From Nitrosopumilus sp. (GTDB lineage Archaea > Thermoproteota > Nitrososphaeria > Nitrososphaerales > Nitrosopumilaceae), in assembly GCA_965249555.1 (NCBI GenBank), contig OZ252243.1, positions 1,216,001 through 1,280,000 on the forward strand: a stretch of DNA of 64,000 bases. The letters are read 5' to 3'. The position numbers were made by a program, and so were the translations under genes. Below, piece by piece: positions 6,956-34,814 of this stretch. Under the pieces are notes generated by a model, which was not told where the DNA came from, searched no databases, and saw only the letters and a program-made list of their open reading frames with translations. Numbering within the stretch: the stretch's first letter is position 1; each line of letters opens with the position of its first letter.

Positions 6956-9900
6956 ATGAATAACGAATTAGGACGAAAAATAACTAGTCTTACATTAATG
7001 ACAATTATGGTCGCCGGTGGTATGACATTTGCATTCCCTGGCTTTATGCCAGTTGCACATGCAGCCAACCCCGACCTATTTGTCTCCGCAGAAAGCTCAG
7101 TCTTTGAAAATTACATGTCAGGACCTCAAGTCATTGAGGTTATAGTCAGTGACCCAGGTCTTACTGATACAGATGAAGCAAAAGGTGAACCAACCGTTAC
7201 CGTTGGAGGCGATGAACTTAGAATGGTTCAAGGCACTGATGGTAAATGGTATGCTTACTTTGCAGACAGAACTCAAGCATTTATTGCAGACTCTACCACA
7301 GAAGACGTTGTAAACGAAGGATTAAACTTCGGTAACTTTTGTGGAGCAAATTCTGACATATTTTCAAGTGTTCCTAACGCCATACTATTCAGTGAAACTT
7401 CAGGTGTCGCTATTCCAGTCAATCAATTGGTTGGAGCAACAAATGGTACCGATGCACAAACTGCATTAACAGATTGTACTGCATTCGGTCCAAACCTTGC
7501 ACTTCATGGCACAGCTGCAGAAAACGTGATTAGAGAAGCAGAAGATGTAAACACATCCATCTCAGGTAACATAGGACAAATTGGTCTTGTAAATACAGAC
7601 ATTTGGCCTTTCATTCAACTTTATGACATCAACCCAACTGGTAACATTGATGTATTTTATGACAAAGGTGGTGATCCTCAAACGGTTAGACTAACTTTTG
7701 ACACAGTAGATCAATTAGCAGCAACTGGATTAGACAAAGATAGAACAATCTATCCTCAAGGTGCTGAAGTACACGTTACTATTACTGATACTTGGCTAAA
7801 CATTGATCCAACTGACGAAGATTCTTGGACATTTGGTACACTTGCAGGTTCTGCATCTACCAATTATCAAGTCTTTGACGAAAGTGGTGGTCTAGCAGGT
7901 GCAAACGTTGTAAATGGTGTAATCGATATCTCAGGTGAATTATCAACTATGATGATCGGAGATAACGGTATCTTACTTGTTGATCTTGACGCACAATCAG
8001 TAGAGCAAGATGTCTTAATACTTCAAGACAATGATGACTCTAGAATTACTTGTGAAATGCCCCAAGATGCATCTACTTGTAAAATTGATGGTGACAGTAC
8101 GGCTGTAATCAGTCAACCAGTTACCATCACTGAAAGTGCACCAAACTCTGGTGTATTTGAAACATTTGACAACGGCGATACTTCTATATTCGCAATTTCA
8201 GACAAGGCTAAACAAGGCACAACTGGAACCATCGATTATAACGCAAGTCCCGTCTCTATCGAAACAGATTTCTCATATGGGTCGGTTGACATTAAAGCAG
8301 TCGATGATGAATGGAATTCTGGTGAAGAGATTCCCGTTGAAGTAGTTGATGCAGATCAAAACAGAAACAGTAGAGTAGATGAGGATCTAATAGTATCTGA
8401 TCCAAATATAACAATCATTCCAGCATTAACTACTGGTGATCCATTTACACTTGGTGAAGCAGGAACAGGTGGCATTAATGACATTGATCAGCAAGCACTA
8501 TACGTTGCATGGCCTGGTCTCACAAGTTTTGGTAACTTTACTATGCTCGGTACTAATAACCTCAATGCTACTGCAACAATATCTGTTGATAGCTTTAGTG
8601 AAAGAGCACTCATCACAAACATGACCGCTGTAGATAATGGTGATACTAATTATACTACTGCATTGATCATTGACTTAGCTACTAAATTCTCTGACTTGAC
8701 AAGTACGATCACTGATGAAACTTCATTTACTGGATTTAACCTCTTAAACGTAGATTTGAGAAGTTTATCCGCCACACGCACCTATGATGTTTACTTATTG
8801 AATACAACTGACACCACTGATGGTATTATTCTAAATGTTGTTGGTTTAATCAATGGTGCAAAAGAAATAGGTGCTACTCTACTCGTTGACAGTGTTGATG
8901 CACAAAGCCTCACACTCTTAAGCAGCAATGCTAATGATGCAATATTCAATGGTAACACCCCTGGTACCAATTCAATTGGTCTTGCTATTGTTACAAATAA
9001 TAACAAAACAATATCTGGCAACACCCTTGTTGATGTTAATCCAATCGTAGTAGACTTCTTCTCATTCGGCTTTAGTGATGATGGTGTGCAAGCATCCGAA
9101 AGGATTGCAAACCAAATCATCAGAATTGAAGTTGAAGAATCAGGTGACAACACAGGTGTCTTTGTAGGATCCCTTGAGTATGTCATGGTTAACCAACTAA
9201 ACATCATGGATAAGAATACCTACTTAGGTATCGCTCCAATCGCTGATGATCCATCATTCATTGTAATTGAGGATCTCACTGATGAAGATGCACCACAAGT
9301 TTCATATCTTGATATAGATCAAGAAGGTGAAGCTACAACCGTATCTGATAGAGAAGCAGCTCCAAGTCATTCAGGTGTTGTATCATTGAATCAAGATTCA
9401 TACAAGATTGCTGACACTGTAATTATTACTCTCGAAGACGTAGATCTTAACGTAGACTCTAGTCTTACCGATGTTTACACTGTTGTCGCCACAAACGACG
9501 CTGATGTAGATAACGACCAAGTAGGAAAAGATGTCGATAGTGACCTAGAGACTTTCTCATTTGGTTCTCAAGGCAGATTACTTGATGTTACATTTGACGA
9601 CGCTAAATGGACAGATGAAGATGCTTGTAATCCTGGAGGCTTTGATGGCCTTGCAGATACCGGATTCACACTAAAAGAAACCGGTCCAGCAACAGGTGTA
9701 TTTGAAGGCAGCTTCTTAATCCAAGCAGATTGGTGTAGACCAGATGGAAAATCAGATACAACAGGAATTCCAGAAACCACAACCGGACTTGATATCGAAG
9801 TCAACTATGTTGACTATAGAGATGCATCTGGTGAAATTATAGAAGTTGGTGACTCTGCAGGCGTACGCGCAAACACAGGCTCAGTAAGTCTTGACAGAAC

Positions 9901-12070
9901 AGTTTACCCAGTACCATTTGGTGTATTTGGTGACTTTACTGACAATAATGCTGAATCTCCAGACGGTAGATCATTATTCCCAGTACATCAAACCGGTGTA
10001 AGTGGTGATAATGAATTACAAACAGGAGAAGCCCTTGTTAGCGGAGATCTAACTATTCACGTAAGAGTAAATGATCCAGACTTTGACATTAACCCAGCTG
10101 GTGTAGATTTCATAGCCGCAAATACCGCAACAACTAACGTAGGTCCTGTCAAAATCTCTGTTATCAGAAGTTCTGATGAGGTCGTACTCGGTTACGCAGG
10201 TGGTCCTGCAGCATTAGACGGCTTAATTGACGTCGGTGATGATGCAGCAACCTCAGCACGACAATTTGGTCCAATTGATGAAATTGCACCAAATTCAGGT
10301 ATTTACGAACTTGATCTCACTATCCGATACACTGACGGTCCAGCATCAGCAACATGCCCAAGTGGTTCAGAATATACGCCACTAGATGGCACTGCTGTTG
10401 CAGCAGATAACGAATCAGCAAGATTTGACGCTCCCTCAGACCCAGGTGAGAATTACTGTATCCTACAAGGAGATATTCTCCAAGTAGAATACACTGATCC
10501 TGCCGATGCATCAGGTGACGAAAATACTGTTACTGACTCTGCTACATTTGATCTAAGAAACGGTGTATTGCAATCCGACAAATCAGTTTACATTATCGGT
10601 TCCGACATGATCTTAACACTCATTGAGCCAGACTTTGATCTTGACAATGATGGTGCTGAGACCTATGACTTGGACTTGATCGAATGGGACTCTTCTGCAA
10701 AGACTACTACCATGGGAAACTCTGGTACTGACGCAGTAGCATTCGATCCAGAACCAACAGACTTCAGAGAAACAGGTGACAGTACTGGCATCTTCCAGAT
10801 TGTTATCGAGATTCCTGAAATTCTTAGTGGTAATAACCTTGAAAGAGGTGAAGAAATCATTCTAGAATATACTGATTGGGGTCCATCCGGATCTGACTAT
10901 GTAGGTGATGAAGATGAAGATGTAAACATTACATTATTCACTTCAAACTTCGGTGCAACTGTAAAGCTTGACCAAAAAGTTTACACATGGACTGATAAAG
11001 TCTACATTACCATTGTCGCTCCAGATCACAACTTTGACGGTGATCTAATTGACGAAATTGGAGACGGACGTGCAGACCCAATAAAGGTCTCTACTCGAGG
11101 ATTCGATCTTGACAATTATAAACTCGTTGAAACTGGAACCGACACAGGCATCTTCACCGGTGAAGTAATCCTTACTGGATTTACCTCACATGATGCAGAT
11201 GGCGATGGTGATGATAATGATGCCATAGGTATTACCTATCCATCCACTAACGGCGGTCCAACAGATGGACTATTAGCCACAGATGATGATGACGGACTTA
11301 CAGTATCCTTTGAATTCTCAGAGGATGAAACTGTAGTTGGTTCATCACTTATCAGATGGAATATAGGTGAAACTCAATGGTTAGAGGCAAGCTACCCAGC
11401 TAGCGGAACAGGTGTTGTAAGAATAATTGACCCAGATATGAACTTAAATCCAGAAGCAGTCGACAACTTCGATGTCGATGTGTTCTCTGACTCTGATGGT
11501 GGAGGTATTGACCTTACTGTAACTGAGACTAATGAGGAAACCGGAATATTCGAAGGTACTGTGTTCTTCACAACTACCGATGGATCATCTGGTCACAGAC
11601 TCAGAGTCGCAGAAGGTGATACTGTCACCGCAGAATATGAGGACAATACACTACCAGAACCGTACTCAACTGCAGATGAATTTAAAATCACTGCCACTAC
11701 GCTAATCGGCACTGTAGTACCACCTCTCGAGAGAGCACCAGTTGCTAACTTGAGAACCGTTGATGCATTCGGCAACAGCTTAGATTCTGTTTCCGTTGAC
11801 CAACAGGTACAAATCAGCGCTGACTTGGCAAATGGTCAGGATAGAGAGCAAGCATTTGCATACTTGGTACAGATTCAAGATGGTAACGGTGTTACAGTCT
11901 CACTGGCATGGATTAAAGGTGCACTTACAAGCGGTCAATCATTAAGCCCATCGGTATCATGGCTTCCAACTGAAGTAGGAACATATACTGTTACTGCATT
12001 CGTTTGGGAGTCTGTTGATAATCCAACGGCATTATCACCACCAGTTAGTACAACTGTCAACGTAAGATAA
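6956..12070 (+). CDS. S-layer protein (thaumarchaeal SLP type)
   Basis: Signal peptide MNNELGRKITSLTLMTIMV, acidic composition, repeated ETGxxTGxF Ig-like motifs and C-terminal FVWESVDNPTALSP; T-rich terminator follows. Confidence 0.92.
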   Translation: MNNELGRKITSLTLMTIMVAGGMTFAFPGFMPVAHAANPDLFVSAESSVFENYMSGPQVIEVIVSDPGLTDTDEAKGEPTVTVGGDELRMVQGTDGKWYAYFADRTQAFIADSTTEDVVNEGLNFGNFCGANSDIFSSVPNAILFSETSGVAIPVNQLVGATNGTDAQTALTDCTAFGPNLALHGTAAENVIREAEDVNTSISGNIGQIGLVNTDIWPFIQLYDINPTGNIDVFYDKGGDPQTVRLTFDTVDQLAATGLDKDRTIYPQGAEVHVTITDTWLNIDPTDEDSWTFGTLAGSASTNYQVFDESGGLAGANVVNGVIDISGELSTMMIGDNGILLVDLDAQSVEQDVLILQDNDDSRITCEMPQDASTCKIDGDSTAVISQPVTITESAPNSGVFETFDNGDTSIFAISDKAKQGTTGTIDYNASPVSIETDFSYGSVDIKAVDDEWNSGEEIPVEVVDADQNRNSRVDEDLIVSDPNITIIPALTTGDPFTLGEAGTGGINDIDQQALYVAWPGLTSFGNFTMLGTNNLNATATISVDSFSERALITNMTAVDNGDTNYTTALIIDLATKFSDLTSTITDETSFTGFNLLNVDLRSLSATRTYDVYLLNTTDTTDGIILNVVGLINGAKEIGATLLVDSVDAQSLTLLSSNANDAIFNGNTPGTNSIGLAIVTNNNKTISGNTLVDVNPIVVDFFSFGFSDDGVQASERIANQIIRIEVEESGDNTGVFVGSLEYVMVNQLNIMDKNTYLGIAPIADDPSFIVIEDLTDEDAPQVSYLDIDQEGEATTVSDREAAPSHSGVVSLNQDSYKIADTVIITLEDVDLNVDSSLTDVYTVVATNDADVDNDQVGKDVDSDLETFSFGSQGRLLDVTFDDAKWTDEDACNPGGFDGLADTGFTLKETGPATGVFEGSFLIQADWCRPDGKSDTTGIPETTTGLDIEVNYVDYRDASGEIIEVGDSAGVRANTGSVSLDRTVYPVPFGVFGDFTDNNAESPDGRSLFPVHQTGVSGDNELQTGEALVSGDLTIHVRVNDPDFDINPAGVDFIAANTATTNVGPVKISVIRSSDEVVLGYAGGPAALDGLIDVGDDAATSARQFGPIDEIAPNSGIYELDLTIRYTDGPASATCPSGSEYTPLDGTAVAADNESARFDAPSDPGENYCILQGDILQVEYTDPADASGDENTVTDSATFDLRNGVLQSDKSVYIIGSDMILTLIEPDFDLDNDGAETYDLDLIEWDSSAKTTTMGNSGTDAVAFDPEPTDFRETGDSTGIFQIVIEIPEILSGNNLERGEEIILEYTDWGPSGSDYVGDEDEDVNITLFTSNFGATVKLDQKVYTWTDKVYITIVAPDHNFDGDLIDEIGDGRADPIKVSTRGFDLDNYKLVETGTDTGIFTGEVILTGFTSHDADGDGDDNDAIGITYPSTNGGPTDGLLATDDDDGLTVSFEFSEDETVVGSSLIRWNIGETQWLEASYPASGTGVVRIIDPDMNLNPEAVDNFDVDVFSDSDGGGIDLTVTETNEETGIFEGTVFFTTTDGSSGHRLRVAEGDTVTAEYEDNTLPEPYSTADEFKITATTLIGTVVPPLERAPVANLRTVDAFGNSLDSVSVDQQVQISADLANGQDREQAFAYLVQIQDGNGVTVSLAWIKGALTSGQSLSPSVSWLPTEVGTYTVTAFVWESVDNPTALSPPVSTTVNVR

Positions 12071-12177: not shown

Positions 12178-13152
12178 ATGAAATTGCAAATTTTATTTTC
12201 TGCATTGATGGTTCTTCTACTTGTAAATACTCCTAATTCATTTTCAGAACTTGAGTTATCTACCAACAGTAAGGTTTACTCTCCTGCACATAATTTACAA
12301 ATTTATGGGACTGGATTGCCTGAAGAAAACCTGATTATACGACTTTTTGCTCCTGATGAAACAATTGCAAAATTTGATCAAATTACTACCAAACCCGACG
12401 GTTCTTTTAATTATGGGCTGTTTATCTGGCCAGAACCTTCAACAAGCTTTCCATACGGAACATACACAGTTGAGGTAATTAGTACTGAACAGAATGGAGT
12501 TTCTAAAAAAATTGATGTAAAGTTCTCATCTACAACTGAACTGCTTGATGTAACTGTGGAAAGATTTGTGAATACTTTGGTCTTTGCACCTGAAACTGCA
12601 GCAAAGAATCAATCATTTCGAGTCTTTGTGCAAACAACTAGTGATGGTCTTTTAATTGGAAATGATCCCACTGAACTGCTGAGAACAACTCATGTCCATT
12701 TACCGTCCGGTCTTTCTGTTTCTTTGGCCAAGTCATTTAATGCATTACACCAAGGATTGTACTTTGTTGACTATACTGCAAGAGAAGAAGGAACACATGT
12801 CTTTCATGTTGTTGCTTTTAGTCAGGGAACGACATCTCATGGTTCTGCTGCAACAAACGTTCTAAGTCAAGATCTTGGCGGAATTTCTAATCAAATAATT
12901 AAGCTAAATTCTATTCTGGATGATACCTCAAGTGAGCTTGATAATCTGAAATCTGAAATTCAAGGATTTGATACTACTTTGGAGCATGCAAGTAGTCAAA
13001 TTGATGAAAATATTGGAACCATATCTGGTTCTGTCAAATCCATTAGTGAAGCTTCCTCTCAACTCAATGCATTGATGTTACCAATTATTGCATCTATTGG
13101 ACTTATTGTAGCCTTGCAGGTTACAATTCTTGCACGAAGAAGACAGTTATAA
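12178..13152 (+). CDS. Secreted protein with coiled coil and C-terminal membrane anchor (possible S-layer-associated stalk)
   Basis: Signal peptide, Ig-like region, heptad stretch and terminal TM helix; adjacent to the SLP gene. Confidence 0.7.
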   Translation: MKLQILFSALMVLLLVNTPNSFSELELSTNSKVYSPAHNLQIYGTGLPEENLIIRLFAPDETIAKFDQITTKPDGSFNYGLFIWPEPSTSFPYGTYTVEVISTEQNGVSKKIDVKFSSTTELLDVTVERFVNTLVFAPETAAKNQSFRVFVQTTSDGLLIGNDPTELLRTTHVHLPSGLSVSLAKSFNALHQGLYFVDYTAREEGTHVFHVVAFSQGTTSHGSAATNVLSQDLGGISNQIIKLNSILDDTSSELDNLKSEIQGFDTTLEHASSQIDENIGTISGSVKSISEASSQLNALMLPIIASIGLIVALQVTILARRRQL

Positions 13153-19977: not shown

Positions 19978-20200
19978 GAAAACATCATCTCCAAGTCAGA
20001 ATAAATAATTTTGTTAAGCGAGCCCGAAGGGCTTTTGAGCATTTTTATGAAAAGTCCCGGATTTCATTAATTTCAAACAATTACGATATTGGTATATTTC
20101 AAATATTAAAGAATATCTGCATCCGGTTCTGTTAACTTGACGGAGCTTGGATCATAATCTTTACACTGTTCAATCTTAGGATGTTTTCAACCAATCTCAA

Positions 20201-20260: not shown

Positions 20261-20890
20261 TTATGAATCCCTTTTCTTAATTGCCTCTTTTTTTCCATCT
20301 GGCAAACTGTCAAAAATATCATCTATAATTTTTCCTCTGGTATGAGCCCAATCAGAAATATAATTTACAATCTCAAACAACTTGGTTGCTGTGTTTACAT
20401 CATCTCTCAAATCCATTTCTAAAGGGTGTACTGCTTGTCCACCAATCACTCTGACAGAATCTAACGCTTTTATCATTCTATCCTCTAGTCCTTGCTCTGC
20501 CAATTTTTTTATTTTTTCATTCAAATCTTTACCTGTCGCTTTTTTCTCATTACATATCTTTTCAATACACAATCTCAATAATACACACGCTGACCTTGGA
20601 GAACGTGAAATTATGTCTCGCGCTTCATTGTAATCAATTTTTATTTCATCAGTCATATCTGGGTTAGGCATTGGTGCATTACCTGTTGATGGATAAATCA
20701 TATTTTCTTCTTTCCAAATTGTAATGTCTCTACATCGTCTACAATGTCCAACCATGAAGTTATTAGCATTAACAGAATTTACATACTGACCTGTTCTTAT
20801 TACATTCGTCCAAGATTGATCAGAATATGATCCACAGTTTGGACAATGAAATGCATCTAGATTTACAGCAGGTTGAGTGAATTCAGTCAT
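20261..20890 (-). CDS. DUF4145-like (HEPN superfamily) protein with an N-terminal Zn ribbon
   Basis: CPNC/CRRC; YNEAR..SPRSACVLLRLCIE; RVIGGQAVH resembles the RxxGNxAxH motif. Confidence 0.8.
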   Translation of the reverse strand: MTEFTQPAVNLDAFHCPNCGSYSDQSWTNVIRTGQYVNSVNANNFMVGHCRRCRDITIWKEENMIYPSTGNAPMPNPDMTDEIKIDYNEARDIISRSPRSACVLLRLCIEKICNEKKATGKDLNEKIKKLAEQGLEDRMIKALDSVRVIGGQAVHPLEMDLRDDVNTATKLFEIVNYISDWAHTRGKIIDDIFDSLPDGKKEAIKKRDS

Positions 20891-20907: not shown

Positions 20908-21501
20908 TTAATTCATTTTGTAATTATCATTCCAATAGTATATCCAATACTTCATTACTAATTGCATGATTCCAGCAGTTTGTATGATGTTCTTTGATCT
21001 TCGTTCTATTTTATTTTCTATTTCTTTTAATGAATTAAATATGGGATTTCCTTCTACTAATATTTCTTTTTGAAATTTCTTGATTTCATCTTCTGAGGCA
21101 AAATTAGAAGAGTAACTAATAAGATTAAAATTATGAAATTTTAGTTTAAACGGTTCCCATATTTTTAGAAAATTTTCTAAATCTTTTTTCTCATCAGTAA
21201 CATCATGATTTAACGATCTAAAATATTCTGTAAATATTTGAATCTTGTTAATTTTTAAATCCACATATTTTTCAAATCCCTCTTTTATTTTTTTAATAAT
21301 GTTGTCAAACTCTGGGATTATATTTGGTAATTGTTGTTTATTATGATTAGACATTATGACTTTGCTAATTAGTTGTAGTATTTCCAATGAACCATTTGTA
21401 ATCATTATCAATGCTTCACTATCTGGTTGATTGATACTATTGTTCATTTTTGATAATCTCATTATCACTGCTGCTGTATTAAATTGATTTGGCTCACTCA
21501 T
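20908..21501 (-). CDS. Hypothetical helical protein
   Basis: 197-aa ORF co-oriented with its neighbours. Confidence 0.65.
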   Translation of the reverse strand: MSEPNQFNTAAVIMRLSKMNNSINQPDSEALIMITNGSLEILQLISKVIMSNHNKQQLPNIIPEFDNIIKKIKEGFEKYVDLKINKIQIFTEYFRSLNHDVTDEKKDLENFLKIWEPFKLKFHNFNLISYSSNFASEDEIKKFQKEILVEGNPIFNSLKEIENKIERRSKNIIQTAGIMQLVMKYWIYYWNDNYKMN

Positions 21502-21649: not shown

Positions 21650-21719
21650 AACTACCTTAAGATAATTCTATTATATAATTTCTTTTCATATATCCATTTA
21701 AGGTATAGTATTATATATG

Positions 21720-21745
21720 GGTTGAACACATAGGTTGAACACATA
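21720..21745. repeat. 13-bp tandem repeat GGTTGAACACATA x2 between a TATA-like element and the tRNA-like gene
   Basis: Direct reading. Confidence 0.85.
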
Positions 21746-21755
21746 GATATGATAT

Positions 21756-21841
21756 GGTGAGTTTATCTAGAATGGTAAGATGTCGGGCTTATGACCCGAT
21801 TGTTGTAAGAGACATCGTGGGTTCAAATCCCACACTCACCG
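21756..21841 (+). tRNA. Atypical tRNA gene, anticodon TAT, long variable arm, G73
   Basis: Acceptor GGTGAGT/ACTCACC, D stem ATCT/AGAT, anticodon stem TCGGG/CCCGA with loop CTTATGA, 17-nt variable region, T arm GTGGG-TTCAAAT-CCCAC. Confidence 0.85.
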
Positions 21842-21880
21842 CATCTTTTCATTCTATATTAATTGAGAGGTCTTAGGTTT

Positions 21881-23166
21881 TCCCATACGAAATCATCTCC
21901 AACCCTACTGAGGACACTTCCTAGTGTGCTTTGCTGAATCAGGACATCTCAGATATGCCTTGCATCTTATACTTTCGTTGTGTCAGTTCATGATTTTGTG
22001 TACGATATACTTTCAGAGTTAGCATGTACCCGGATTATTGCAAGCATCCGGTCTTGCAGCTGCCACCTTTGCCTTTTGTTTTCCTCTTCTCTTTGCAATT
22101 CTGAAATAGAATGATCCCATTCTTTCATCAAATCGTACTGTAGTTGCAGCCTCTACCATTGCGTTACGTAACCATGCAGAACCCCTCTTTGTTATTCCGC
22201 CTCCTCGGTGCACATCTGCACTGTCCCTGTGCGACGGTGCAAGTCCTGCATATGAGACTAGTTTTTCTGCTGTTGCAAATCTGCTGATGTCAACTATCTC
22301 TGAAATTATTGTCAATGCCGTGACATAGTTTATTCCAGGAATGGTCATCAGTAGTCTGGTTTTCCCATCCTCATTGCTGCAATCTTTATCTCAATTGTGT
22401 TGATCTGTTTTTGCATCATATCTATGGTATCAAGATATGCATCCATTGCCATTCTATCAGATTAATTTCATGCAACCATCGTACTCCTTTCTGCGAGAAT
22501 GTCTTTGTGGGTATAATCATATTTTGCAAGTATTGCATAAATCATGTTTTTGTGTTTTGATACATTTCGCACGCGATTCAGTCTGGTTCTTACCAGACTG
22601 TATAGATCTCTATAGTATTTTTCTGGTACGAATGAGCTGTACACCATGTCTGCTCTTAGCAAGTCTGCCAATACGTCTGAATCAAGTTTGTCGTTTTTTA
22701 GCTTTGCCTGTGCAATTATCTTGGTCTTTGCAGGATGTGTAAGAATTGTATCAATTCCATGGTCTTCTAGTGTGTCATGTAGTCTGATCCAATAGTTTGC
22801 AGTTGATTCGCATACTGCCTGTATGTCATTACCATATGTCTTTTTGATATGTTTGATAAAACCCATTATTCCATTTGTGGTATTATCAAAGCTTGTCTGC
22901 TCTAGCTTCTTTCTGGATTCCCGTTTTATTGTTGCAACACATTTCTTCTTGTGAACATCAATTCCTATGCTGATCATATTATCACCTCCTTTTTGATCAA
23001 ATTGCCTGATCTAGCGGAATGCTCCCATTCACCATCTATGTGGTATTTTGTTTTCCGCTCACTTTGAGTTAGTCTGTCAAACGCCCTTGTACATGGCAAT
23101 ATTCATTCAACTCTCAGGCCTAACAGTAGGTATACATCACAAGATATGAAAAAGATTTCGTATAAC
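21881..23166 (-). mobile_element. IS110-family element with frameshifted transposase (ORFs 22468..22977 and 22019..22348)
   Basis: GIDVHK, CEST, KNDKLDS, TIPGI, SYAGLAP-S; subterminal inverted repeat ATACGAAATC (21885-21894) / GATTTCGTAT (23154-23163). Ends are approximate. Confidence 0.8.
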
Positions 23167-23981
23167 GTCTGTCAATATCTGCAATTTCTGCTGCAATAAC
23201 TAGTGACGAGTAATCACCAATTCCTGGTATTGATTTTATTATCATGGCATCAGGACTGGTCTTTACAGCAGCATACACTCTTGAATTAATATCTTCAATT
23301 TGCAGATTAAGATGGCTTATCTGTCGTACAAATCCATCTATGCGATAGTCACCCAGGGAGGTAAGTCTTTTGTTGTATGTTACAGTGAACGTGACTCCTG
23401 GTATCTTGATTCCCTCCTGTAACAAAATTCCATGAACAGAATTTTTGAGAGATGTTCTCCACTGAACGAGTTTTTTTCTGTATCTTACCAGCTGGCGATG
23501 TTTTACTATCTTTTTGTTTGGAATATGGCATGTTGCAATGTATCCCCCGCGCAAAAGATCTGCCAGTATCCTGGCATCAATCTTGTCTGTTTTTTTTGAT
23601 GCAGCTATTGCCTTTGTAAGATACGGGTTTGAGAGTGTTACGTTTTTGTATCCTAATTCATCTGTAAGAAACCTATACGTGCCATACCAGACTGATGATG
23701 ATTCCATGACAATATTGGCATGAATTGGTATGTCTGTAAAATGTTTCCTGATTGATTCATGAGTGTTCTCAACTTTTATGTTTTGTAATATTTTTCCGTC
23801 ATTATCCATTGTTGCTACTTGAAGAAATTTCTTGTGCAAGTCAATGCCAACATACATGCTCTTGTCTTTCCCCCTAATCTGTTTCTTTGGACTTTTCTTG
23901 GAATACGATGGATTACGACTCCTGGACCTGAGTTCATTCCCTATGCTATCTGATTTCCTTCTTTTTGTATTCACATATAGC
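23167..23981 (-). mobile_element. IS110/IS1111-type element, 3'-truncated copy
   Basis: MYVGIDLHKK, MES, KTDKIDA, IPGIG; near-identical to 31677-33580; similarity stops where the neighbouring IS110 begins. Confidence 0.85.
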
Positions 23982-24012
23982 TATTGATTTGTGCGTGAAG
24001 GTTGATACATAC
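23982..24012 (-). repeat. Isolated 31-bp IS66 left end abutting the IS1111-type element
   Basis: Identical to 30696-30726 and, in reverse complement, to 31646-31676. Confidence 0.9.
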
Positions 24013-24091: not shown

Positions 24092-24670
24092 TTACTTTGA
24101 ACCTTTTTTACTGGTTTTCTTTTTTGTGGTTAGTTTATTCTTGTTAGATGAATTTTTTTTAATGCTTGTAGTTACACGTTTAGTAATAGGCTTTAATTCA
24201 TCCCAACGTTTTTTAATAAATGATTCAGATCCTTCTAATTCAATATATCCATGATGCTTGTGTTTCATTTTAATTTTGGTAGTTGGTAGTGTAGAAATCT
24301 TCTGAGTATCACTTAATTTTTTGTTGGATGTATTAGTTGTAATGTCTTCAATTTCTAGAGATTTTTGGTTTATGTTACTTTGATATGTAAAATCTCCTTT
24401 TTCTGCTTTGATCATGATAATAAATTCTTTAACAGTTGTATCCCAGAATCTTCTGACACCATCTTTTGTTTTAATTCTCTTCAGCTTTACTAATCCTTGT
24501 ATCTCTAAAGACTGAAGATGTTCATATACTTCTTCCATTGACATGTGAGTTCCTCTAGATATAGAATAAGTATCTAGGGGCTTGCCATTAGACCACAAAA
24601 ATTTTAGTATGTCAATATTTGGTGCTGAACATATGGTATAAAGTTCATTTAGCCAATTAATATCGCCCAT
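24092..24670 (-). CDS. Winged-HTH (ArsR/TrmB-like) protein with a basic C-terminal tail
   Basis: ILKFLW..PLDTYSISRGTHMSMEEVYEHLQSLEIQGLV. Confidence 0.75.
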   Translation of the reverse strand: MGDINWLNELYTICSAPNIDILKFLWSNGKPLDTYSISRGTHMSMEEVYEHLQSLEIQGLVKLKRIKTKDGVRRFWDTTVKEFIIMIKAEKGDFTYQSNINQKSLEIEDITTNTSNKKLSDTQKISTLPTTKIKMKHKHHGYIELEGSESFIKKRWDELKPITKRVTTSIKKNSSNKNKLTTKKKTSKKGSK

Positions 24671-25804
24671 CTAAATTCCCCTCCTAAGATATCTTTCCAA
24701 ATCTGGTGGCAACTTAAACTCATAATTTCTTTTTGATCCACTTCGTAGAATAGCTCCTTTATCAATTAATTCTTTTAATTGATTAAGAATGGAACCAATT
24801 GGGTAGCCTAACAATTCTGCAATAACTTTAGAGGATGATGGTCCACTTTTCAGCATATTAATTATCTTTTTTTGCATTTCGGTTAAATTTTCATAAAGTG
24901 ATTTAGATCCAGATATTACTGTGGATATTACATTATCTAAATCTATTATATCTATTTCATTAATCATTGCATTGTTAACAGCTTTGTTAGTTATTTCTAA
25001 TAATTTCCTTGGTGCTCCTCCACTAAATGAATAAAGTTCATCTATTGCATCTGGAGTAAAAGGGCTTAAACATCCATTACAATTAGTTTTTTTTGTATTT
25101 GAACATGCTCCTTGGCTTCCATTGTTTAAATCACTTTCAATACACGCAAATCGTATTCTTTTATTTATAAAATCATAAACATCTTCTTTGTTGAAACCAT
25201 CTAAGTAAATTTGATTTGAAATTCTATCTGCAAGTGGAAAGTGTTTAGCTTCCAAAAGTCTGAGAGTTTCTGGAGGTCCAGATGCAATAAGACTTACTCC
25301 ACCTATATCATGGAAAGATCTTATCCAATACAAGACATCTGTATGTCCCTCACCTAATTCATCTATCACTACTATGAATTTCATCCCTTGACCAACAAAC
25401 TTGGTAATTTCATCAGATACCATTTTGAAAATAGTTGTTACATCTAAATTTCTTGGTCTTTTTTCTGTTAAATGTTCAAGAACGTCTGCAAAGAATACCT
25501 TAATACTACTTGGAGCTTTTCTAATAAAGATAGACTTGAATTCATCTGTAGGTAATCCATTTAATACATATTCTAGGAATGTAGTTTTACCAATACCAAC
25601 GTTACCTGTTAACAAGGCACTTTGTCCTTTATCTACACATACCAGAAACTGTTTAATTTGCTCAGTATATCCTGTAAAAAGTTTCCTATTGCTCTTGATG
25701 TCCACAATATCAAAAGGATTAATTTTCCAAGCCGGATCTCTATTTTTTAGCCAATTGTTTTTTCCTTCTCTTACATCTTTTAGAAGATCCCTTACTTCAG
25801 CCAT
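24671..25804 (-). CDS. AAA+ ATPase (ExeA/Cdc6-like) with C-terminal wHTH
   Basis: Walker A GNVGIGKTT, Walker B IVVIDE, LADRI, GGAPR, a Cys-rich insert and a terminal wHTH. Confidence 0.85.
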   Translation of the reverse strand: MAEVRDLLKDVREGKNNWLKNRDPAWKINPFDIVDIKSNRKLFTGYTEQIKQFLVCVDKGQSALLTGNVGIGKTTFLEYVLNGLPTDEFKSIFIRKAPSSIKVFFADVLEHLTEKRPRNLDVTTIFKMVSDEITKFVGQGMKFIVVIDELGEGHTDVLYWIRSFHDIGGVSLIASGPPETLRLLEAKHFPLADRISNQIYLDGFNKEDVYDFINKRIRFACIESDLNNGSQGACSNTKKTNCNGCLSPFTPDAIDELYSFSGGAPRKLLEITNKAVNNAMINEIDIIDLDNVISTVISGSKSLYENLTEMQKKIINMLKSGPSSSKVIAELLGYPIGSILNQLKELIDKGAILRSGSKRNYEFKLPPDLERYLRRGI

Positions 25805-25970
25805 ACTTGTAGAACGATCTATTGGTTAATAAGAATTATTCATTTTTATTCATTACATTTATATTCTAGGTGAATATAGATTAATAAGATATGGTCACTG
25901 AAATAAAACAAAGCAAAAACATCATACAGCCTCATCACCAACTGAACAATCACATAGGAGTAATAAAGGC

Positions 25971-26570
25971 ATGAACAAAACCGTAGTTTTTGTAAACGGT
26001 AAAAAACATGAGCTGACTTCTAATCAAGTTTTAGTTGGAGAACTGATTACATTAGGAGGCGGTAAACCTGGTGAGTACGAACTTCAAAAACGTAAAGGAC
26101 AGGGAGGACCAGTAACAAAAACTTTCCAAGATCCTAATCAAGTGATTGAAGTAAAAAACGGAGATCACTTTACAACCAGATTTACTGGATCCATCAATCC
26201 AGCTGCGGAGGTAACTCCCTCCTCAGCTATTTTTGGGAAATTTCTCACAAAAAATGGAATCAAGTATGAAGTTAGAAAAATTGCAGATAAGTCAATTTAC
26301 ATTTTTGAATATAAAATTCCTAATGGAGAATATACAAATATTTCAATTACTTTAGGTCTTCCAATTTCAGAAGATTTTCCAATTACTGCACCATATGGAT
26401 TTCATATCAAAAAAGATCATAATTTTAAGGAGAACATAACAAATGTGAATTCTAGTCCATTAGGTGGAGATTGGGAGTTTTGGAGTAGAGAAGTTACAAA
26501 TTGGGATGTAAATCATCGTGGTTCTCAATACTACCTAGATAATGTAAACCGATGTTTGGAGTTGAAGTAA
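25971..26570 (+). CDS. Multi-ubiquitin-type Ubl fused to a prokaryotic E2 (family E-like)
   Basis: VFVNGK..GELITLGG..IEVKNGDHF (Ubl), then YKIPNGEY, FPITAPYGFH and WEFWSR (E2). Confidence 0.8.
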   Translation: MNKTVVFVNGKKHELTSNQVLVGELITLGGGKPGEYELQKRKGQGGPVTKTFQDPNQVIEVKNGDHFTTRFTGSINPAAEVTPSSAIFGKFLTKNGIKYEVRKIADKSIYIFEYKIPNGEYTNISITLGLPISEDFPITAPYGFHIKKDHNFKENITNVNSSPLGGDWEFWSREVTNWDVNHRGSQYYLDNVNRCLELK

Positions 26571-27959
26571 ATGGAATATAATGTAGCTATGACTGAATCT
26601 GCCAACAAAGAACTTTCTGATTTCTTATTAGATGATCTGAATGATGAAGAAATTTGTTTTGCAACTTGGTCACCATCAAACGGAAAAGATAGAATCACTA
26701 TACTACTAAATGACATTATCTATCCTGAAACTGGAGATAGAGTTCGTCATGGAAATGTTTCTGCCATGCCACAATATGTTGATCGAGTAAAAGAATTTGC
26801 TCGAAAAGAAAAGAAAGGATTAATCATGATTCATACACATCCAAGTGCTACTGGTTCTCAAGGAGTTTCAATTCCTGATTTACATTATGAACAAGATGTT
26901 TTGTCACGTGAAGTTTTTGGAATAACTAGATTGCCATTTGTTGGAATGACACTCTCAGGTGATGATGTGTGGAGTGCTAGGTGTTATCCACAACCATACA
27001 AAATCATTTGGTGTTCTGCAGTTCGAATAGTTGGCAAAAGACTAATCATCCATTATAAGTCCCAGAGTTATTCACATTCAAATGAAAAACTAGTCAGGAC
27101 AACCAGTATCTGGGGAGAGCAAAAACAAGAAGAAATTATGAGGTTAAAAGTTGGCATTATTGGGGTTGGAAGCATAGGTGCTGCGGTGGGTGAAATATTA
27201 GCCCGAATGGGAATTGGCAAAATTTTATTGATGGACTATGACCTAGTTAAGAAACATAATTTTGACAGGATGCTGTATGTCACTGATCATGATGTAAATG
27301 AAAAAAAGGCAGATATTGTTGCAAAAAACCTTAGAATATCTGCTACTAATCCTAACTTTGAATGTGTTACATACTATAGTAGTATTGTAGAAGAAGATGG
27401 TTTCAGAGAAGCATTGAACTGTGATGTATTGTTTAGTTGTGTTGATAGACCCTGGCCAAGACAAGTATTGAATCATTTATCCTATTCCTCATTGATTCCA
27501 GTAATTGATGGAGGTGTAAGTTTCTACATTCCAAATGGAAAATTTGTTCATGGAATGTTTAGAGCACAAACAGTAGGACCAGAACGTGCATGTATGGAAT
27601 GCCTTAATGCCTTTGATGCAGGTCAGGTACAACAGGATCGAGACGGTATTTTTGATGATCCTGAGTATGTAAAAAAACAGGAAACAAACACAAAAACAAG
27701 ACAAAACATCATGCCATTTGTGTTTGGACTTTCCAGTCTTGAAACTATACAGTTTGTTGAACTAACAACAAACATTGGTAACATGGGAGATCTTGGTCAG
27801 CAACCATACAACTATCATCCTGGAGATCTATCACCAATTCACAAAAAATGCATAGATGGTTGCTATTATGTAAAAAATATTGGATTAGGAGAATCATCTA
27901 GACCTTATTTGTCAAATGATTTGTCAAAACAAAGAGAATCTGGGGTTCAAAATGAATAA
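26571..27959 (+). CDS. JAB/JAMM peptidase fused to a ThiF/E1 adenylyltransferase
   Basis: EE..HTHP..SIPD; VGIIGVGSIG, DYD..HNFDR, SCVD, CMEC and C-terminal CIDGC. Confidence 0.88.
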   Translation: MEYNVAMTESANKELSDFLLDDLNDEEICFATWSPSNGKDRITILLNDIIYPETGDRVRHGNVSAMPQYVDRVKEFARKEKKGLIMIHTHPSATGSQGVSIPDLHYEQDVLSREVFGITRLPFVGMTLSGDDVWSARCYPQPYKIIWCSAVRIVGKRLIIHYKSQSYSHSNEKLVRTTSIWGEQKQEEIMRLKVGIIGVGSIGAAVGEILARMGIGKILLMDYDLVKKHNFDRMLYVTDHDVNEKKADIVAKNLRISATNPNFECVTYYSSIVEEDGFREALNCDVLFSCVDRPWPRQVLNHLSYSSLIPVIDGGVSFYIPNGKFVHGMFRAQTVGPERACMECLNAFDAGQVQQDRDGIFDDPEYVKKQETNTKTRQNIMPFVFGLSSLETIQFVELTTNIGNMGDLGQQPYNYHPGDLSPIHKKCIDGCYYVKNIGLGESSRPYLSNDLSKQRESGVQNE

Positions 27960-29284: not shown

Positions 29285-30726
29285 GTATGAATCAAGCACT
29301 TAGATGTATTTTGCCATCTCAGAAAACATGTTCAATTCCCTTATTCTCCATGTCTCAAAGCATGTGAGAAAGACTGAGATCATCCTCATGCCCTGATCAC
29401 TCTTCATCTGCCCGCGAACATTCCTCTGCATCACGCACTTTCGAATGGAATTCTCTGCATCATTGTTAGTTGACGGGACATCGCCATCCATGACAAACGT
29501 AAACATGCTGTTCCTTGCAGTCTTTAGCTTCTTGCCAAACTGAACCATCTCCATATCACCTTTCAAATATCGTGCAATGATACGGTCTAGCTGTTTTAGT
29601 AAATCATCCCTGTACGTTTCCCGCCGTTTTGTATGACGATTACCTACACTCCAAACCCTGGCATGACCTAGCATATCTGAGAGTTTCTCGTATAGAATCC
29701 TTGCCTTTTTGTCCTGTGATTTTATTGCCAGATATTTGGCATCGCGCTGCAGGTGTGCAGTGCATCTCTGCTTTGTGTTATCACAAAATACTGTCCTGTA
29801 CGGAGCATATCCGTCAGACACTAGGGTTCCTTTGAATTTCTTCCAGTACTTTTTTAGAACATTGGCACCTCTGCTGTACTCCAAGGCATACTGTGCACTA
29901 GTCTTGCTTCTTGCAACCCACATCCATCCAGTATTTCCATCAATTGAAAATCCTGTCTCATCGATTCCGAGAATATTTTCAGTCACGATTTCGCTGTGGA
30001 TTGTATTGTAAAATGACTCTAACATCACACTACCGTTGCGAAGAATGGATTGTACGGTTGTATTGCTGATTTCTAATCCATATCTTTCATAGAGTGTGGT
30101 TCTGATAGCATCGTATGTCAATCTCTTTGAGAACAGTGAGACGACCTCACGTATCACTGAACCATCAAAACATCCATGTAGTGGAAGGTTTCCCGTGGTT
30201 TGAAAATTATCAGAACAGTCCATGCAGATGTATTGATTCAAAACATGCTCAGTTATACCGTAGGGTGTTGGTGGAGGAATCTCAACCATTATCCTTTTGC
30301 AGGTTTTGGTTTGATGAATATTTTCACTACCGCATTTGGGACATGCATCTGATCTGTGGTGTTTGGTGCTAGTTGGTCTGAATTTCTGTGTCTTGCCAAC
30401 GTGTCCTGCTATTCCACCACGTCTTGATTTGCCTGGCTGTCTGTGTTGTCTTTTTTGCTTTCTCCATTCAAGGGAATTCTTTGATGGCGGAGAGTGTGCA
30501 TTCTCATAATATGACAGCTTTTTTTGCAGTTCCTTGTTTGATTCTATGAGATTTTCTATGATTAGCGGTAGTTGTTTTAACTTTTCTTGCAGTTGTTTTA
30601 TCTCTGCTTGTAGCTGTATGATGATTTTCTCATGACCACAACCTGACATGTTTTGTATGATGATTTAGTTGATCTTAGATCTTTTTGTGTAATGATATTG
30701 ATTTGTGCGTGAAGGTTGATACATAC
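29285..30726 (-). mobile_element. IS66-family element (1442 bp), apparently intact, 8-bp TSD
   Basis: TIRs GTATGAATCAA / TTGATACATAC; TSD AAATTTAT at 29277-29284 and 30727-30734. Confidence 0.95.
29300..30649 (-). CDS. IS66 transposase (449 aa)
   Basis: Leucine zipper, SPPS, CPKCG Zn finger, DETG/SDGY/STNNDAE. Confidence 0.93.
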   Translation of the reverse strand: MSGCGHEKIIIQLQAEIKQLQEKLKQLPLIIENLIESNKELQKKLSYYENAHSPPSKNSLEWRKQKRQHRQPGKSRRGGIAGHVGKTQKFRPTSTKHHRSDACPKCGSENIHQTKTCKRIMVEIPPPTPYGITEHVLNQYICMDCSDNFQTTGNLPLHGCFDGSVIREVVSLFSKRLTYDAIRTTLYERYGLEISNTTVQSILRNGSVMLESFYNTIHSEIVTENILGIDETGFSIDGNTGWMWVARSKTSAQYALEYSRGANVLKKYWKKFKGTLVSDGYAPYRTVFCDNTKQRCTAHLQRDAKYLAIKSQDKKARILYEKLSDMLGHARVWSVGNRHTKRRETYRDDLLKQLDRIIARYLKGDMEMVQFGKKLKTARNSMFTFVMDGDVPSTNNDAENSIRKCVMQRNVRGQMKSDQGMRMISVFLTCFETWRIRELNMFSEMAKYI

Positions 30727-31805: not shown

Positions 31806-32898
31806 TAGCGACGATCAAAAGTTCGTGAACATCCTTGCAGGATTTCTAAAAATATAATTAACAACATCAAGTTTGAATTTTTTTGTTCCAAAGTATTGTG
31901 ACACTGCATTATTCATTATTGTAAACATTGCATAATATTCTGATACCAACAACACATGCTTGCTTATTTTCCAACACTGCTCTATCATGTTTAGATATGG
32001 TGGGTTCCTTTTGGTAGCCAAATCAGTCTAACATCTGGATTATCTGTCAAAAAGTCCTTGACCTTCTTTGATTTGTGCACTGATGCCCTGTCAAGTATCA
32101 ACGCAGTTTTACCATATTTGTAGTGCAACTCTTTTAGATATTCTACAAATGTTATGCCGTTGAATTTTTTATAAATTCTAAACAGTTGGTCTCCATTGAT
32201 TGTAATTGTTCCATATACTGCCAAACTTTCATGGTCTCCCACATATGGGAGAAATATTCTTTTGGCAACTGGTGACCAATATTTTCGTCCTGCTTTTACA
32301 TCCCTAACAAAGAATGCCTCATCAAGCATTGCAATGGTGAATCCACTCTTTTTTAGGTGTGGAATTCTCTTTTTCATGCGTTGCTGCCCAGCTGCGCACA
32401 TCTGTTACACTTGCATGATTGATGTGATATTTTTGTGCAGTTTTAGCAGACATTCCATACATTCCATACTGGCGCATTATTTTTCTGACATGTGTTGTGT
32501 GAAATTTTATTCCAGTAGAATCAAATATTGTCTGCTACAGCATTACAGGTGTAAATAGTGTCAACATAATTTTGAACATAATACAATTCATTTGCTTCTT
32601 TGGGATTACACATGGTCTTTCACTCCTTGGGTGATCGTATAGGCCATCTACGTTAAAACGATCAACCCATTTGCGTACCCAGTTTGTACAGCGGTATAGT
32701 GTTTGTGCGGTGTGCTCTAATTCCTTGCCATCTTTGAGAACCATTAGTACTGCAAGCATCCTGACTATATCTTTGGAGTTTTCCTTTTTGTATGCTGCTT
32801 CAAGCTGTTCTAACTTGTTCATGTGTTTCATTGTGTGTGGTGATCAAAAAGTCTTTTGTTTTGATGATTTTTAGTTCACGAACTTTGACTCTTCGCTA
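31806..32898 (-). mobile_element. IS630-family element with TA duplication; transposase fragmented
   Basis: ~25-bp TIRs TAGCGA..AAAGTTCGTGAAC; TA at 31804-05 and 32899-900; LDEA, LILDRASVH and LNMIEQCW in three frames. Confidence 0.9.
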
Positions 32899-33876
32899 TA
32901 TGTTGGCATTGACTTGCACAAGAAATTTCTTCAAGTAGCAACAATGGATAATGACGGAAAAATATTACAAAACATAAAAGTTGAGAACACTCATGAATCA
33001 ATCAGGAAACATTTTACAGACATACCAATTCATGCCAATATTGTCATGGAATCATCATCAGTCTGGTATGGCACGTATAGGTTTCTTACAGATGAATTAG
33101 GATACAAAAACGTAACACTCTCAAACCCGTATCTTACAAAGGCAATAGCTGCATCAAAAAAAACAGACAAGATTGATGCCAGGATACTGGCAGATCTTTT
33201 GCGCGGGGGATACATTGCAACATGCCATATTCCAAACAAAAAGATAGTAAAACATCGCCAGCTGGTAAGATACAGAAAAAAACTCGTTCAGTGGAGAACA
33301 TCTCTCAAAAATTCTGTTCATGGAATTTTGTTACAGGAGGGAATCAAGATACCAGGAGTCACGTTCACTGTAACATACAACAAAAGACTTACCTCCCTGG
33401 GTGACTATCGCATAGATGGATTTGTACGACAGATAAGCCATCTTAATCTGCAAATTGAAGATATTAATTCAAGAGTGTATGCTGCCGTAAAGACCAGTCC
33501 TGATGCCATGATAATAAAATCAATACCAGGAATTGGTGACTAATCACTAGTTATTGCAGCAGAAATTGCAAATATTAGCAGATTCAACAACTCTCACAAG
33601 TTATGCGCATATGCAGGAGTCGTGCCATCAGTCAGAAATTCTGTAGATTACATCATGGCCGTATAACCAAAAGAGGAAGCATGACACTACGATGGGTTCT
33701 TGTCCAATGTGTCTATGTCCATACACTACATGCCAAGAACAGTGACATTACAAAATTTTACAATCGCATTAAGAAAAAGAGAGGCTCATCAAAAGATGTA
33801 GTTGCTGCATCATCCCAGATTCTGCGAGTGATTTACTGGATGCTAAAAGAGAGGAGAGAATTTGTACAGAATTACA

Positions 33877-34739: not shown

Positions 34740-34814
34740 CGGGCCCAAAGGGCTTCGATCCCTTGACTTTTGGATTAGAAGTCCAACACGCTATCCATGC
34801 TGCGTCATAGGCCC
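34740..34814 (-). tRNA. tRNA-Arg(TCT)
   Basis: Reverse complement GGGCCTATGACGCAGCATGGATAGCGTGTTGGACTTCTAATCCAAAAGTCAAGGGATCGAAGCCCTTTGGGCCCG folds as a cloverleaf with anticodon TCT. Confidence 0.93.

Follow-up and report, generated by a model that had tools for sequence, protein, structure and literature searches.

A class-II tRNA gene with a UAU anticodon associated with IS6-family transposons of Nitrosopumilaceae

The closest known counterparts of the gene described here are the bacterial allo-tRNA(UAU) and the nematode nev-tRNA(UAU). The gene is located at 21756..21841 on the + strand of the window, the 64,000-nt stretch of the Nitrosopumilus sp. genome that was analysed (contig OZ252243.1, positions 1,216,001 to 1,280,000), and it places a UAU anticodon on a class-II tRNA body with a long variable (V) arm. 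It is very probably a real, structurally selected tRNA gene and a standard module of a passenger-carrying IS6-family transposon of Nitrosopumilaceae, of which the window holds a decayed copy. In the available portion of the report of Mukai et al. (2017) (PMC5389517) the allo-tRNAs have long arms, Ser identity and an 8/4 or 9/3 geometry of the acceptor and T stems, with UAU among the predominant anticodons; one allo-tRNA pseudogene overlaps a transposon-related open reading frame (ORF), and many allo-tRNAs lie near toxin–antitoxin genes. The same text describes UAU variants in Escherichia coli, six of which were inactive in translation and two lethal. On this account the archaeal family to which the window gene belongs resembles allo-tRNA(UAU) in its long arm, predicted Ser identity, non-Ser anticodons with UAU prominent, proximity to transposon-related and toxin–antitoxin or defence genes, and doubtful use in translation. 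The allo-tRNAs are bacterial and have the unusual stem lengths, whereas the archaeal family has the canonical 7/5 arrangement, mainly GAU and GAA anticodons and a fixed place in an IS6 element; in the window gene the acceptor stem has 7 bp, the T stem has 5 bp and T8 cannot pair with C65. The nematode nev-tRNA-Ile(UAU), in the available text of two reports (PMC3333845, PMC4300185), is a class-II tRNA that is leucylated in vitro. Both it and the archaeal family combine class-II bodies with UAU, an anticodon of neither Leu nor Ser, and charging of nev-tRNAs ignores the anticodon, as is proposed for the archaeal tRNAs. However, the nev-tRNAs are leucylated products of eukaryotic chromosomal genes, while the archaeal tRNAs have G73 and a Ser-type D loop and are borne by a transposon.

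The Candida tRNA-Ser(CAG) is also a Ser/Leu hybrid with G37, reads a codon of the hydrophobic column and drives a codon reassignment in a yeast clade. One member of the archaeal family (L145:2224) has CAG together with G37; in Candida the reassignment is genome-wide, whereas the archaeal element's own genes fit the standard code. The tRNAs of phages, plasmids and integrative elements have a body cognate to their anticodon. The UAU tRNA is like them in being mobile and lying beside defence or counter-defence genes, and differs in its mismatched body. Its carrier element, as seen in the relatives, resembles the IS6 family (IS26/IS257/IS240) in having terminal inverted repeats (TIRs) with GG and cTGTt, a DDE_Tnp_IS240 transposase and, in one element (L114), an 8-bp duplication; the IS6 TIR consensus is given as GG..cTGTt in the available part of a review of the family (PMC7986276). 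In that part of the review one IS6 member is named as having a passenger gene, and the string ‘trna’ occurs 0 times, whereas the archaeal elements are 3.2–5.1 kb in size, carry defence cargo and a tRNA, and have an N-terminal SWIM zinc finger on the transposase. The available part of a survey of thaumarchaeal mobile elements (PMC6563490) presents tRNA genes as integration targets and describes insertion sequence (IS) families, and shows no tRNA-bearing IS. No description of tRNA-bearing passenger IS6 elements was found in the available literature text, although supplementary tables, which lay outside the search, may list them.

The earlier note, made from the sequence of the window, had described a UAU tRNA with fully paired stems, a TAT anticodon, G37, a 17-nt variable arm and G73. 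This is real, and every point of the anatomy is correct by reading of the sequence, ARAGORN and Rfam. ARAGORN calls a tRNA-Ile(tat) at 21756–21842, one of two tRNAs called in the window, and the Rfam model RF00005 (gathering score 29 bits) matches 21756–21841 over model positions 1–71 of 71 with 56.5 bits (E 1.6e-9), much as it matches the window's ordinary tRNA-Arg at 34740–34814 (57.7 bits). The acceptor stem is GGTGAGT/ACTCACC. The D stem ATCT/AGAT carries a 9-nt loop, AGAATGGTA, and position 26 is G. The anticodon stem TCGGG/CCCGA is closed by the loop CTTATGA, providing U33, the UAU anticodon (21790–21792), G37 (21793) and A38. The strand then forms the variable region TTGTTGTAAGAGACATC (21800–21816; 17 nt with a 4-bp stem) and the T arm GTGGG-TTCAAAT-CCCAC, and ends at G73 (21841); CCA is not encoded. 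All the stem pairs are Watson–Crick or G-U, and U8, A14, G18G19, A21, U33, T54-T55-C56 and G53:C61 are all present. An extra arm that was really a spliced intron, considered in the earlier note, is ruled out. The arm is a covarying helix shaped like the Ser and Leu arms of the host, there is no bulge-helix-bulge around it (a 4-bp helix with a 3-nt bulge on each side is absent), and its hypothetical removal would leave a variable region of 3 nt. A search of the window for a partial repeat of the 3′ end of the tRNA, as expected of an att site, found none at ≤3 mismatches, so there is no sign of integrase-type insertion at this locus. The exact 18-mer of the anticodon arm has two matches in genome contigs, both bacterial and outside tRNAs, and thus due to chance.

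The gene belongs to a family of ∼29 loci in Nitrosopumilaceae, in which the anticodon is GAU at 13, GAA at 11, UAU at 4 and CAG at 1, with A35 invariant. UAU is best regarded from these sequences as one state of a family in which positions 34 and 36 vary about a constant A35. Homologs that retain UAU, for which the earlier note had suggested a search, are the loci L051, L147 and L148 besides the window; the note had also allowed that all homologs might carry Leu or Ser anticodons, and a single locus (CAG, the L145:2224 copy) has a Leu anticodon and none has a Ser anticodon. G73 is found in 26 of the 29 copies. The anticodon loop has 7 nt in every intron-free copy except L045; among the 11 GAA copies two have an intron-like insertion of ∼14 nt at 37/38 (L044 and L047). 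Five copies are visibly degenerate (L045, L047, L052, L146:8361 and L145:11269).

The distribution is sparse. With two candidates scored per genome, 400 other genomes from the taxonomic family yield relatives by blastn at E ≤ 1e-7 in 9 cases, 6 of them among the 98 genomes of the genus; in most relatives blastn matches Leu(UAG), because the anticodon arm of the window copy agrees with that of host Leu(UAG) at 15 of 18 bases. A pattern search with the 3′ end of the tRNA located four loci in Nitrosopumilus assemblies, and the 3′ 29-mer pattern has 0 matches in viral contigs. A covariance model of the family, R1, exceeds 75 bits in 9 of 150 further genomes of the genus, above a plateau of ∼70 bits to which the canonical tRNA-Ser(GCU) rises in many of them. 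The window copy scores 99.7 bits, among the best.

Selection on the fold is evident in an alignment of twelve family members, scored over the 26 pairs of the cloverleaf and V stem. Overall 97.1% of cells are paired, and 13 of the 26 pairs change on both sides, comprising four in the acceptor stem, two in the D stem, four of the five in the anticodon stem and three of the five in the V stem; the T stem does not vary. In 500 shuffles no value was as high, and partners displaced by sliding paired at 32–48%. The covariation across the stems indicates that selection acts on the entire class-II fold and also on its extra arm.

The host genome also contains a paralog (2195289–2195362, −), a 5′-truncated GAU member joined to the 5′ part of another long-arm tRNA. 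The full chimera (2195289–2195442, −) comprises a GTCAGGG-type long-arm 5′ part up to the T loop followed by positions 17–73 of the GAU member, and after it comes a 68-aa N-terminal remnant of an IS6 transposase.

The main point, missed by the earlier note, is the placement of the tRNA as a fixed module in an IS6-family transposon. The order within the TIR-bounded element is TIR, variable defence cargo, repeat-flanked promoter-like region, tRNA, T-run, a transposase with SWIM and DDE_Tnp_IS240 domains, and TIR. Three elements, L112, L113 and L114, were fetched in full, and in all three a pair of TIRs encloses the whole unit (sizes 3.2–5.1 kb). The TIRs are of 60 nt with 93% match and start GGTTCTGTTAAC in L112 (1463–4652), of 20 nt with 100% match and start (T)GATTCTGTCAAG in L113 (2288–5844), and of 30 nt with 80% match and start GGTTCTGTG in L114 (331–5411). 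The transposon ends start GGTTCTGT, and those of all three elements fit the IS6 end consensus of a GG tip and a cTGTt core. L114, which carries a UAU tRNA, is flanked by an 8-bp direct repeat, GCCCGTCC, as in an IS6 target duplication; no 8-bp duplication was found at L112 or L113. The 4-kb pieces of L147 and L148 contain no clear TIR pair, and a search confined to the tRNA and transposase returned nothing, the ends lying further out.

On the 3′ side of the tRNA the relatives have a T-run, TATATTAATTTT, GAGGTG and then the ATG of a protein of 365–385 aa. In both copies scanned this protein matches DDE_Tnp_IS240 (PF13610, E ∼5e-14), with the N-terminal SWIM domain reported for the L044 copy only. 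Transposase homology starts 37–72 nt after the tRNA at 8 of the 29 loci. The gene is full length in L041, L044, L147 and L148 and split or truncated in L051, L042, L039 and the host paralog; it has gone from beside 9 of the 12 intact tRNAs of the first set. One genome (G397) holds two intact UAU elements, L147 and L148, and UAU-bearing elements have thus been mobile. On the 5′ side of each family tRNA lies a TATAAATAA-like box with a short palindrome or repeat on either side. This motif differs from copy to copy (GTTAAC, CCTTAAGG, GCACGTGC or ACGTACGT; in the window, GGTTGAACACATA twice). Where host copies of this transposase family lack a tRNA, the repeat-TATA-repeat arrangement stands directly before the ATG. 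The repeat-flanked box is a putative regulated promoter with its operator.

The window copy can be followed from its left TIR, GGTTCTGTTAACTTGACGG (20125..20143, +; outer end 20125), which begins GGTTCTGTTAAC and is near-identical to the 60-nt TIRs of L112. The repeats upstream of the window tRNA do not clearly recur at the TIR, since GTTGAACAC, allowing ≤1 mismatch, has 12 matches in the window against 17.8 expected and only one of them near the TIR. Two cargo genes on the − strand follow. One (20908..21501) encodes a protein of 197 aa that has a Cys-rich N-terminal stretch and a coiled coil (a sub-threshold match to TACC_C), and in which 14 of 198 codons are ATA. The other (20261..20890) encodes a predicted 209-aa defence protein of the PD-T7-4/DUF4145 type (Pfam PF13643, E 5e-17); the PADLOC PD-T7-4 match is full length (E 1.1e-72, residues 1–209 on profile positions 1–208 of 211). 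Before the tRNA is a promoter-like region (21710..21745, +), with an AT-rich box, ATTATATAT, at 21710–21718 and tandem copies of GGTTGAACACATA at 21720–21732 and 21733–21745, whose sequence suggests a promoter and operator. After the tRNA the spacer (21842..21877, +) reads as a T-run CTTTTC, TATATTAATT and GAGAGG, and by eye it aligns with the pre-transposase spacer of the relatives.

At this point the element is interrupted. An IS110-family copy (21878..23175) with a broken transposase (Transposase_20 and DEDD_Tnp_IS110 in Pfam; ORFs 22019–22348 and 22468–22977, minus) occupies the expected start of the IS6 transposase gene. This 1.3-kb sequence has at least seven near-full copies elsewhere in the genome at 94–95% identity, plus dozens of fragments, and its homology begins 114–126 nt after the start of the tRNA. 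A second repeated piece of the IS110 family, recognized by Pfam and repeat search, lies at 23168..24012 (ORF 23120–23974, minus). No right-hand TIR partner near the window locus was found in the genome, and there is no IS6 transposase remnant near the window tRNA. The transposon in the window is thus truncated, with IS110 sequence in place of its transposase and right end and with the tRNA still perfect. Insertion sequences crowd this genome (IS66, IS110 and IS630-like), and in the window they are found at 1682–2671, 21878–24012, 29300–30649, 31991–32401 and 32914–33543. Several IS110 copies or fragments also adjoin further unusual tRNA-like genes, as at 1186321, 87107, 1917086, 2216514 and 2219453.

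The cargo of the elements is related to defence and varies between them. L112 contains an N6_N4 DNA methylase and an HNH nuclease, L114 a methylase and a type II restriction enzyme, L148 a methylase and HNH, and L042 an MmeI fragment; L113 contains an IS630-like insert. In one genome (G460; L145 and L146, C2:188001-226000) ten family tRNAs with CAG, GAU and GAA anticodons lie within 35 kb as a cassette-like array with conserved upstream and downstream flanks and no transposase gene downstream of any. Between these tRNAs lie six N6_N4 methylases, MmeI-type and Eco57I-type enzymes, a BglII-like nuclease and DUF3800. The decayed copies L043, L045, L046 and L050 adjoin housekeeping genes instead. 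The earlier note had placed the tRNA divergent from an operon ending in a HEPN-like DUF4145 gene. That neighbour is confirmed by Pfam and by PADLOC as PD-T7-4, but the link is incidental, as cargo differs between elements. DUF4145 homologs occur at two loci in genome contigs, in Nitrosopumilus and Solirubrobacterales; there is no tRNA within 4 kb of the 54%-identical gene in the other Nitrosopumilus, and the Solirubrobacterales locus has ordinary Asn and Met tRNAs nearby. Since the cargo varies while the tRNA stays, there is no specific pairing of the tRNA with DUF4145.

AUA can be read in this host without the UAU tRNA. Its genome, a single contig of 2.23 Mb, encodes three CAU tRNAs, a normal tRNA-Ile(GAU) (5-nt variable loop, A73 and A37), four Ser tRNAs and Leu tRNAs, together with TiaS (a TiaS_FLD match of 125 bits within a 442-aa open frame). 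These findings agree with the view of the earlier note that archaea normally read AUA with an agmatidine-modified tRNA-Ile(CAU), and they make the UAU tRNA surplus for AUA reading; ATA is a common codon in the host, at 22.2 per 1000 in ORFs of ≥250 aa. A class-I body, A73 and A37 (for t6A) are the features of Ile identity, and the UAU tRNA has instead a 17-nt variable arm, G73 and G37. Nor is it an archaeal tRNA-Ile2, in which a CAU anticodon is modified by TiaS, as its anticodon is UAU.

The body of the tRNA appears from its sequence to be a hybrid of Ser and Leu types, leaning towards Ser. Its D loop has 9 nt and lacks 20a and 20b, as in all four host Ser tRNAs, while host Leu D loops have 11 nt; two unpaired bases separate the V and T stems, and the V stem conserves its helix while its sequence is free, both of which are Ser-like. 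R1 scores the host Ser tRNAs at 63.9, 60.6, 54.5 and 50.4 bits, compared with 53.6, 46.2, 44.7, 39.4 and 19.3 bits for Leu, 45.8 for Phe and 42.5 for Ile. A tRNA-Leu would be expected to have A73, 20a/20b and the host-type V arm TCTYYAGGAGTTC; the UAU tRNA has G73, the shorter D loop and an unrelated V arm. With its long arm and G73 it has the sequence marks of a tRNA-Ser except the anticodon, which is neither NGA nor GCU. A 25-nt string covering the T arm, the 3′ acceptor strand and G73 is found in 58 metagenome stretches. ARAGORN calls a tRNA in 54 of these, all of long-arm Ser type (4 are not called), with anticodons that are Ser in 50, UAU in 3 (2 distinct) and GUA in 1; their D arms look bacterial. 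The metagenome loci L056, L077/L098 and L108 have bacterial-type tRNA-Ser bodies with UAU (two distinct sequences) or GUA. Archaeal leucyl-tRNA synthetase (LeuRS) requires A73 and specific V-loop bases, and the change of A73 to G alone converts human tRNA-Leu to a Ser acceptor. Given these requirements, seryl-tRNA synthetase (SerRS) would be the likeliest charging enzyme.

The overall explanation favoured here, a selected class-II tRNA of IS6 transposons charged without regard to its anticodon, is given a probability of roughly 0.45. The RNA would be transcribed from the repeat-controlled promoter, processed as a tRNA with addition of CCA, and charged irrespective of anticodon, most likely by SerRS in view of the prevalent G73, the Ser-type D loop and the V stem with its free sequence. 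Competing with the agmatidine-modified tRNA-Ile2 of the host, it would place Ser at AUA, as a missense and potentially toxic tRNA whose level is set by the element; the earlier note had likewise considered a missense tRNA with Ser or Leu at AUA. This mechanism, with anticodon-blind charging probably by SerRS and a potentially toxic missense product under a regulated promoter, is tentatively placed only slightly ahead of its rivals. A stronger version is distinctly improbable. In this, a Leu-derived class-II tRNA was remodelled for SerRS by G73 and a Ser-type D loop and kept its NUN anticodons, where serine is most harmful; it would be a deliberately toxic adaptor, held by defence-carrying IS6 transposons behind a repressor-controlled promoter and released on viral attack or loss of control, so acting through proteome-wide mistranslation as an RNA-only effector of abortive infection or addiction.

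Several observations weigh against the favoured explanation. The T arm is identical to that of host Leu tRNAs, G37 is also Leu-like, and the anticodon arm of the window copy equals that of host Leu(UAG) at 15 of 18 bases. The anticodons are limited to those reading NUN codons, which would also suit a carrier of a hydrophobic residue. In four copies U33 is replaced by C and in one, a GAA copy, the loop has 6 nt, which are signs of relaxed decoding. Prediction for the single sequence by ViennaRNA gives the window copy a rod-like minimum free energy fold at −34.3 kcal/mol, against −27.3 for the cloverleaf; the rod arises from possible pairing between the anticodon loop and the 5′ side of the V arm in this copy, and covariation across the family favours the cloverleaf. 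Where tRNA-linked transposases have Ile and Phe codons, homologs that lack the tRNA have I/V/L/M and F, and on comparison of L041 with the copy at 666121, 31 Ile correspond to 24 I, 5 V/L/M and 0 S, and 19 Phe to 15 F and 0 S. A private recoding of the element's genes is thus rejected, as they fit the standard code. ATA amounts to 51.5 and 61.8 per 1000 codons in UAU-linked cargo and 13.4–42.6 beside GAU, GAA or CAG (n = 2 versus 5), and a UAU tRNA inserting serine would consequently harm its own cargo most. Lastly, in the available part of a yeast study (PMC6125640) tRNA-Ser with GAU or GAA is among the eleven most depleted of 64 variants, from which Ser-charged copies should be heavily counter-selected unless tightly repressed or meant as toxic.

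These points bear in different ways upon the alternatives. A role outside the ribosome is possible though doubtful, with the tRNA-shaped RNA serving the transposon or cargo as a processing or termination signal that sets transposase level, as a cofactor or regulator, or as an aminoacyl donor. Its position between regulated promoter and transposase, with the conserved T-run and spacer, would be explained, as would the relatives in which the repeat-TATA-repeat precedes the ATG without a tRNA; the copies with C33 and the inactive allo-tRNA(UAU) variants, for which the available text proposes a transposon- or toxin–antitoxin-linked non-translational role (PMC5389517), point the same way. Yet a processing signal needs no more than acceptor and T arms, and here the anticodon and V stems covary, the anticodon loop is canonical, and A35 stays fixed while 34 and 36 vary in a code-like manner; moreover the tRNA persists where the transposase is absent, in the ten array copies and beside 9 of 12 intact tRNAs. 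Decoding with a hydrophobic residue is unlikely. The tRNA would be an extra tRNA-Ile charged by isoleucyl-tRNA synthetase, or a Leu-charged class-II tRNA like the nev-tRNAs, and would supply AUA, AUY or UUY reading to AT-rich cargo. All 29 anticodons read NUN codons (Ile, Phe, Leu), every one being a single change at position 36 from GAG, UAG or CAG (Leu CUN), one copy keeps CAG, the T and anticodon arms and G37 are Leu-like, the UAU copies adjoin the most ATA-rich cargo, and leucylation of nev-tRNA-Ile(UAU) in vitro offers a precedent in the available reports (PMC3333845, PMC4300185). Host Ile, Phe and Leu tRNAs all have A73, however, whereas G73 prevails in the family; the V loops have no motif common to host Leu V arms and the D loop lacks 20a/b. 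The GAU copies have G37 where Ile tRNAs need A37, and a promoter with flanking operators gives the impression of regulation, not of constitutive expression. TiaS and tRNA-Ile2 are already present in the host, and the LeuRS requirements and the A73-to-G switch cited above also disfavour leucylation.

The two remaining alternatives were raised in the earlier note. A decoy or spare tRNA, shielding the cell from nucleases that cut the anticodon loop, whether of viral origin or belonging to rival defence systems (HEPN-type enzymes, for instance), is very unlikely. Phage mobile-element tRNAs that neutralise tRNA-cleaving defences exist, and the tRNA does travel with defence genes (PD-T7-4 in the window; restriction–modification in L112, L114, L148, L042 and G460). 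But the tRNA is kept through changes of cargo, a conserved nuclease partner is missing, and the close Nitrosopumilus homolog of DUF4145 is without a neighbouring tRNA; a replacement should furthermore keep the cognate identity, with A73 and a short variable loop, and this tRNA does not. A decaying pseudogene, either a drifted copy of host tRNA-Leu(UAG) or one whose ‘variable arm’ is an unspliced intron, can hardly be the explanation. It has in its favour the Leu(UAG)-like anticodon arm, the broken element in the window and the several degenerate relatives. Against these stand the perfect stems, the complete set of invariant tRNA bases and the high R1 score, compensatory changes throughout the family that include the V stem, the lack of bulges and the 3-nt variable region that excision would leave, and three other UAU copies in intact or recently moved elements. 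The drifted Leu(UAG/UAA) of the earlier note is wrong as stated, for the family is conserved and has G73 and a D loop of Ser type, although the anticodon arm does resemble that of host Leu(UAG).

The host genome contains other odd tRNA-like genes. Nine of 71–72 nt (Rfam 43–60 bits), at 58883+, 87428+, 92748-, 506756+, 1841925+, 1886429+, 2185021-, 2194433- and 2214901-, have an Ala-type acceptor (G3:U70 and A73) and odd anticodon arms, with a 31:39 mismatch and loops such as UCGAAAA or GUAAGAU; in seven of the nine a hairpin 30–70 nt upstream is followed by a co-varying copy of the gene's own anticodon-loop sequence. A second long-arm G73 family (host 181324+, 1539986- and 1917747+; L149 and L150 in G009) has a GTCAGGG acceptor, a GAA anticodon, a Leu-like 11-nt D loop and conserved flanks, and IS6 transposase fragments (181693–182174) come after its copy at 181324. 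There is also a long-arm ‘Arg(UCU)’ gene at 1186239 and a weak ‘Gly(ACC)’ at 491704. The sequence at ∼1290740–1290869 looks like the 3′ part of a tRNA-Leu(UAA) with one or more introns (19 bits with R1), and is mis-called by ARAGORN as a 2.5-kb ‘Asp’ gene. In another genome, L133 (G216:C1:1307300-1307385, −) has a canonical Nitrosopumilus tRNA-Ser(UGA) body with the loop CTTAAGA, giving UAA, which reads a Leu codon.

Elsewhere in the window, past the IS110 copies, is a second defence-like cluster (24092–27959). Its members are a helix-turn-helix protein whose Csa3-like match is weak, an AAA_22 ATPase that has a CARF-like C-terminus, and Prok-E2_E and ThiF/E1 proteins, the latter matching the PADLOC E1-E2 models. 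Two ORFs, of 1704 aa (6956–12070) and 324 aa (12178–13152), are without a Pfam match and lie upstream of a 1278-aa S8 subtilase.

To the mismatched long-arm tRNAs already described, the allo-tRNAs of bacteria and the nev-tRNAs of nematodes, the archaeal family adds one with the 7/5 fold, purifying selection and anticodons confined to NUN codons. It also gives such a tRNA a defined genetic address, as a fixed module of IS6 transposons that move restriction–modification and PD-T7-4 genes, in a unit of promoter repeats, tRNA and transposase. The IS6 family is thereby extended to passenger-carrying, tRNA-bearing elements in Thaumarchaeota, and the finding bears on whether cells or mobile elements use regulated mistranslation.

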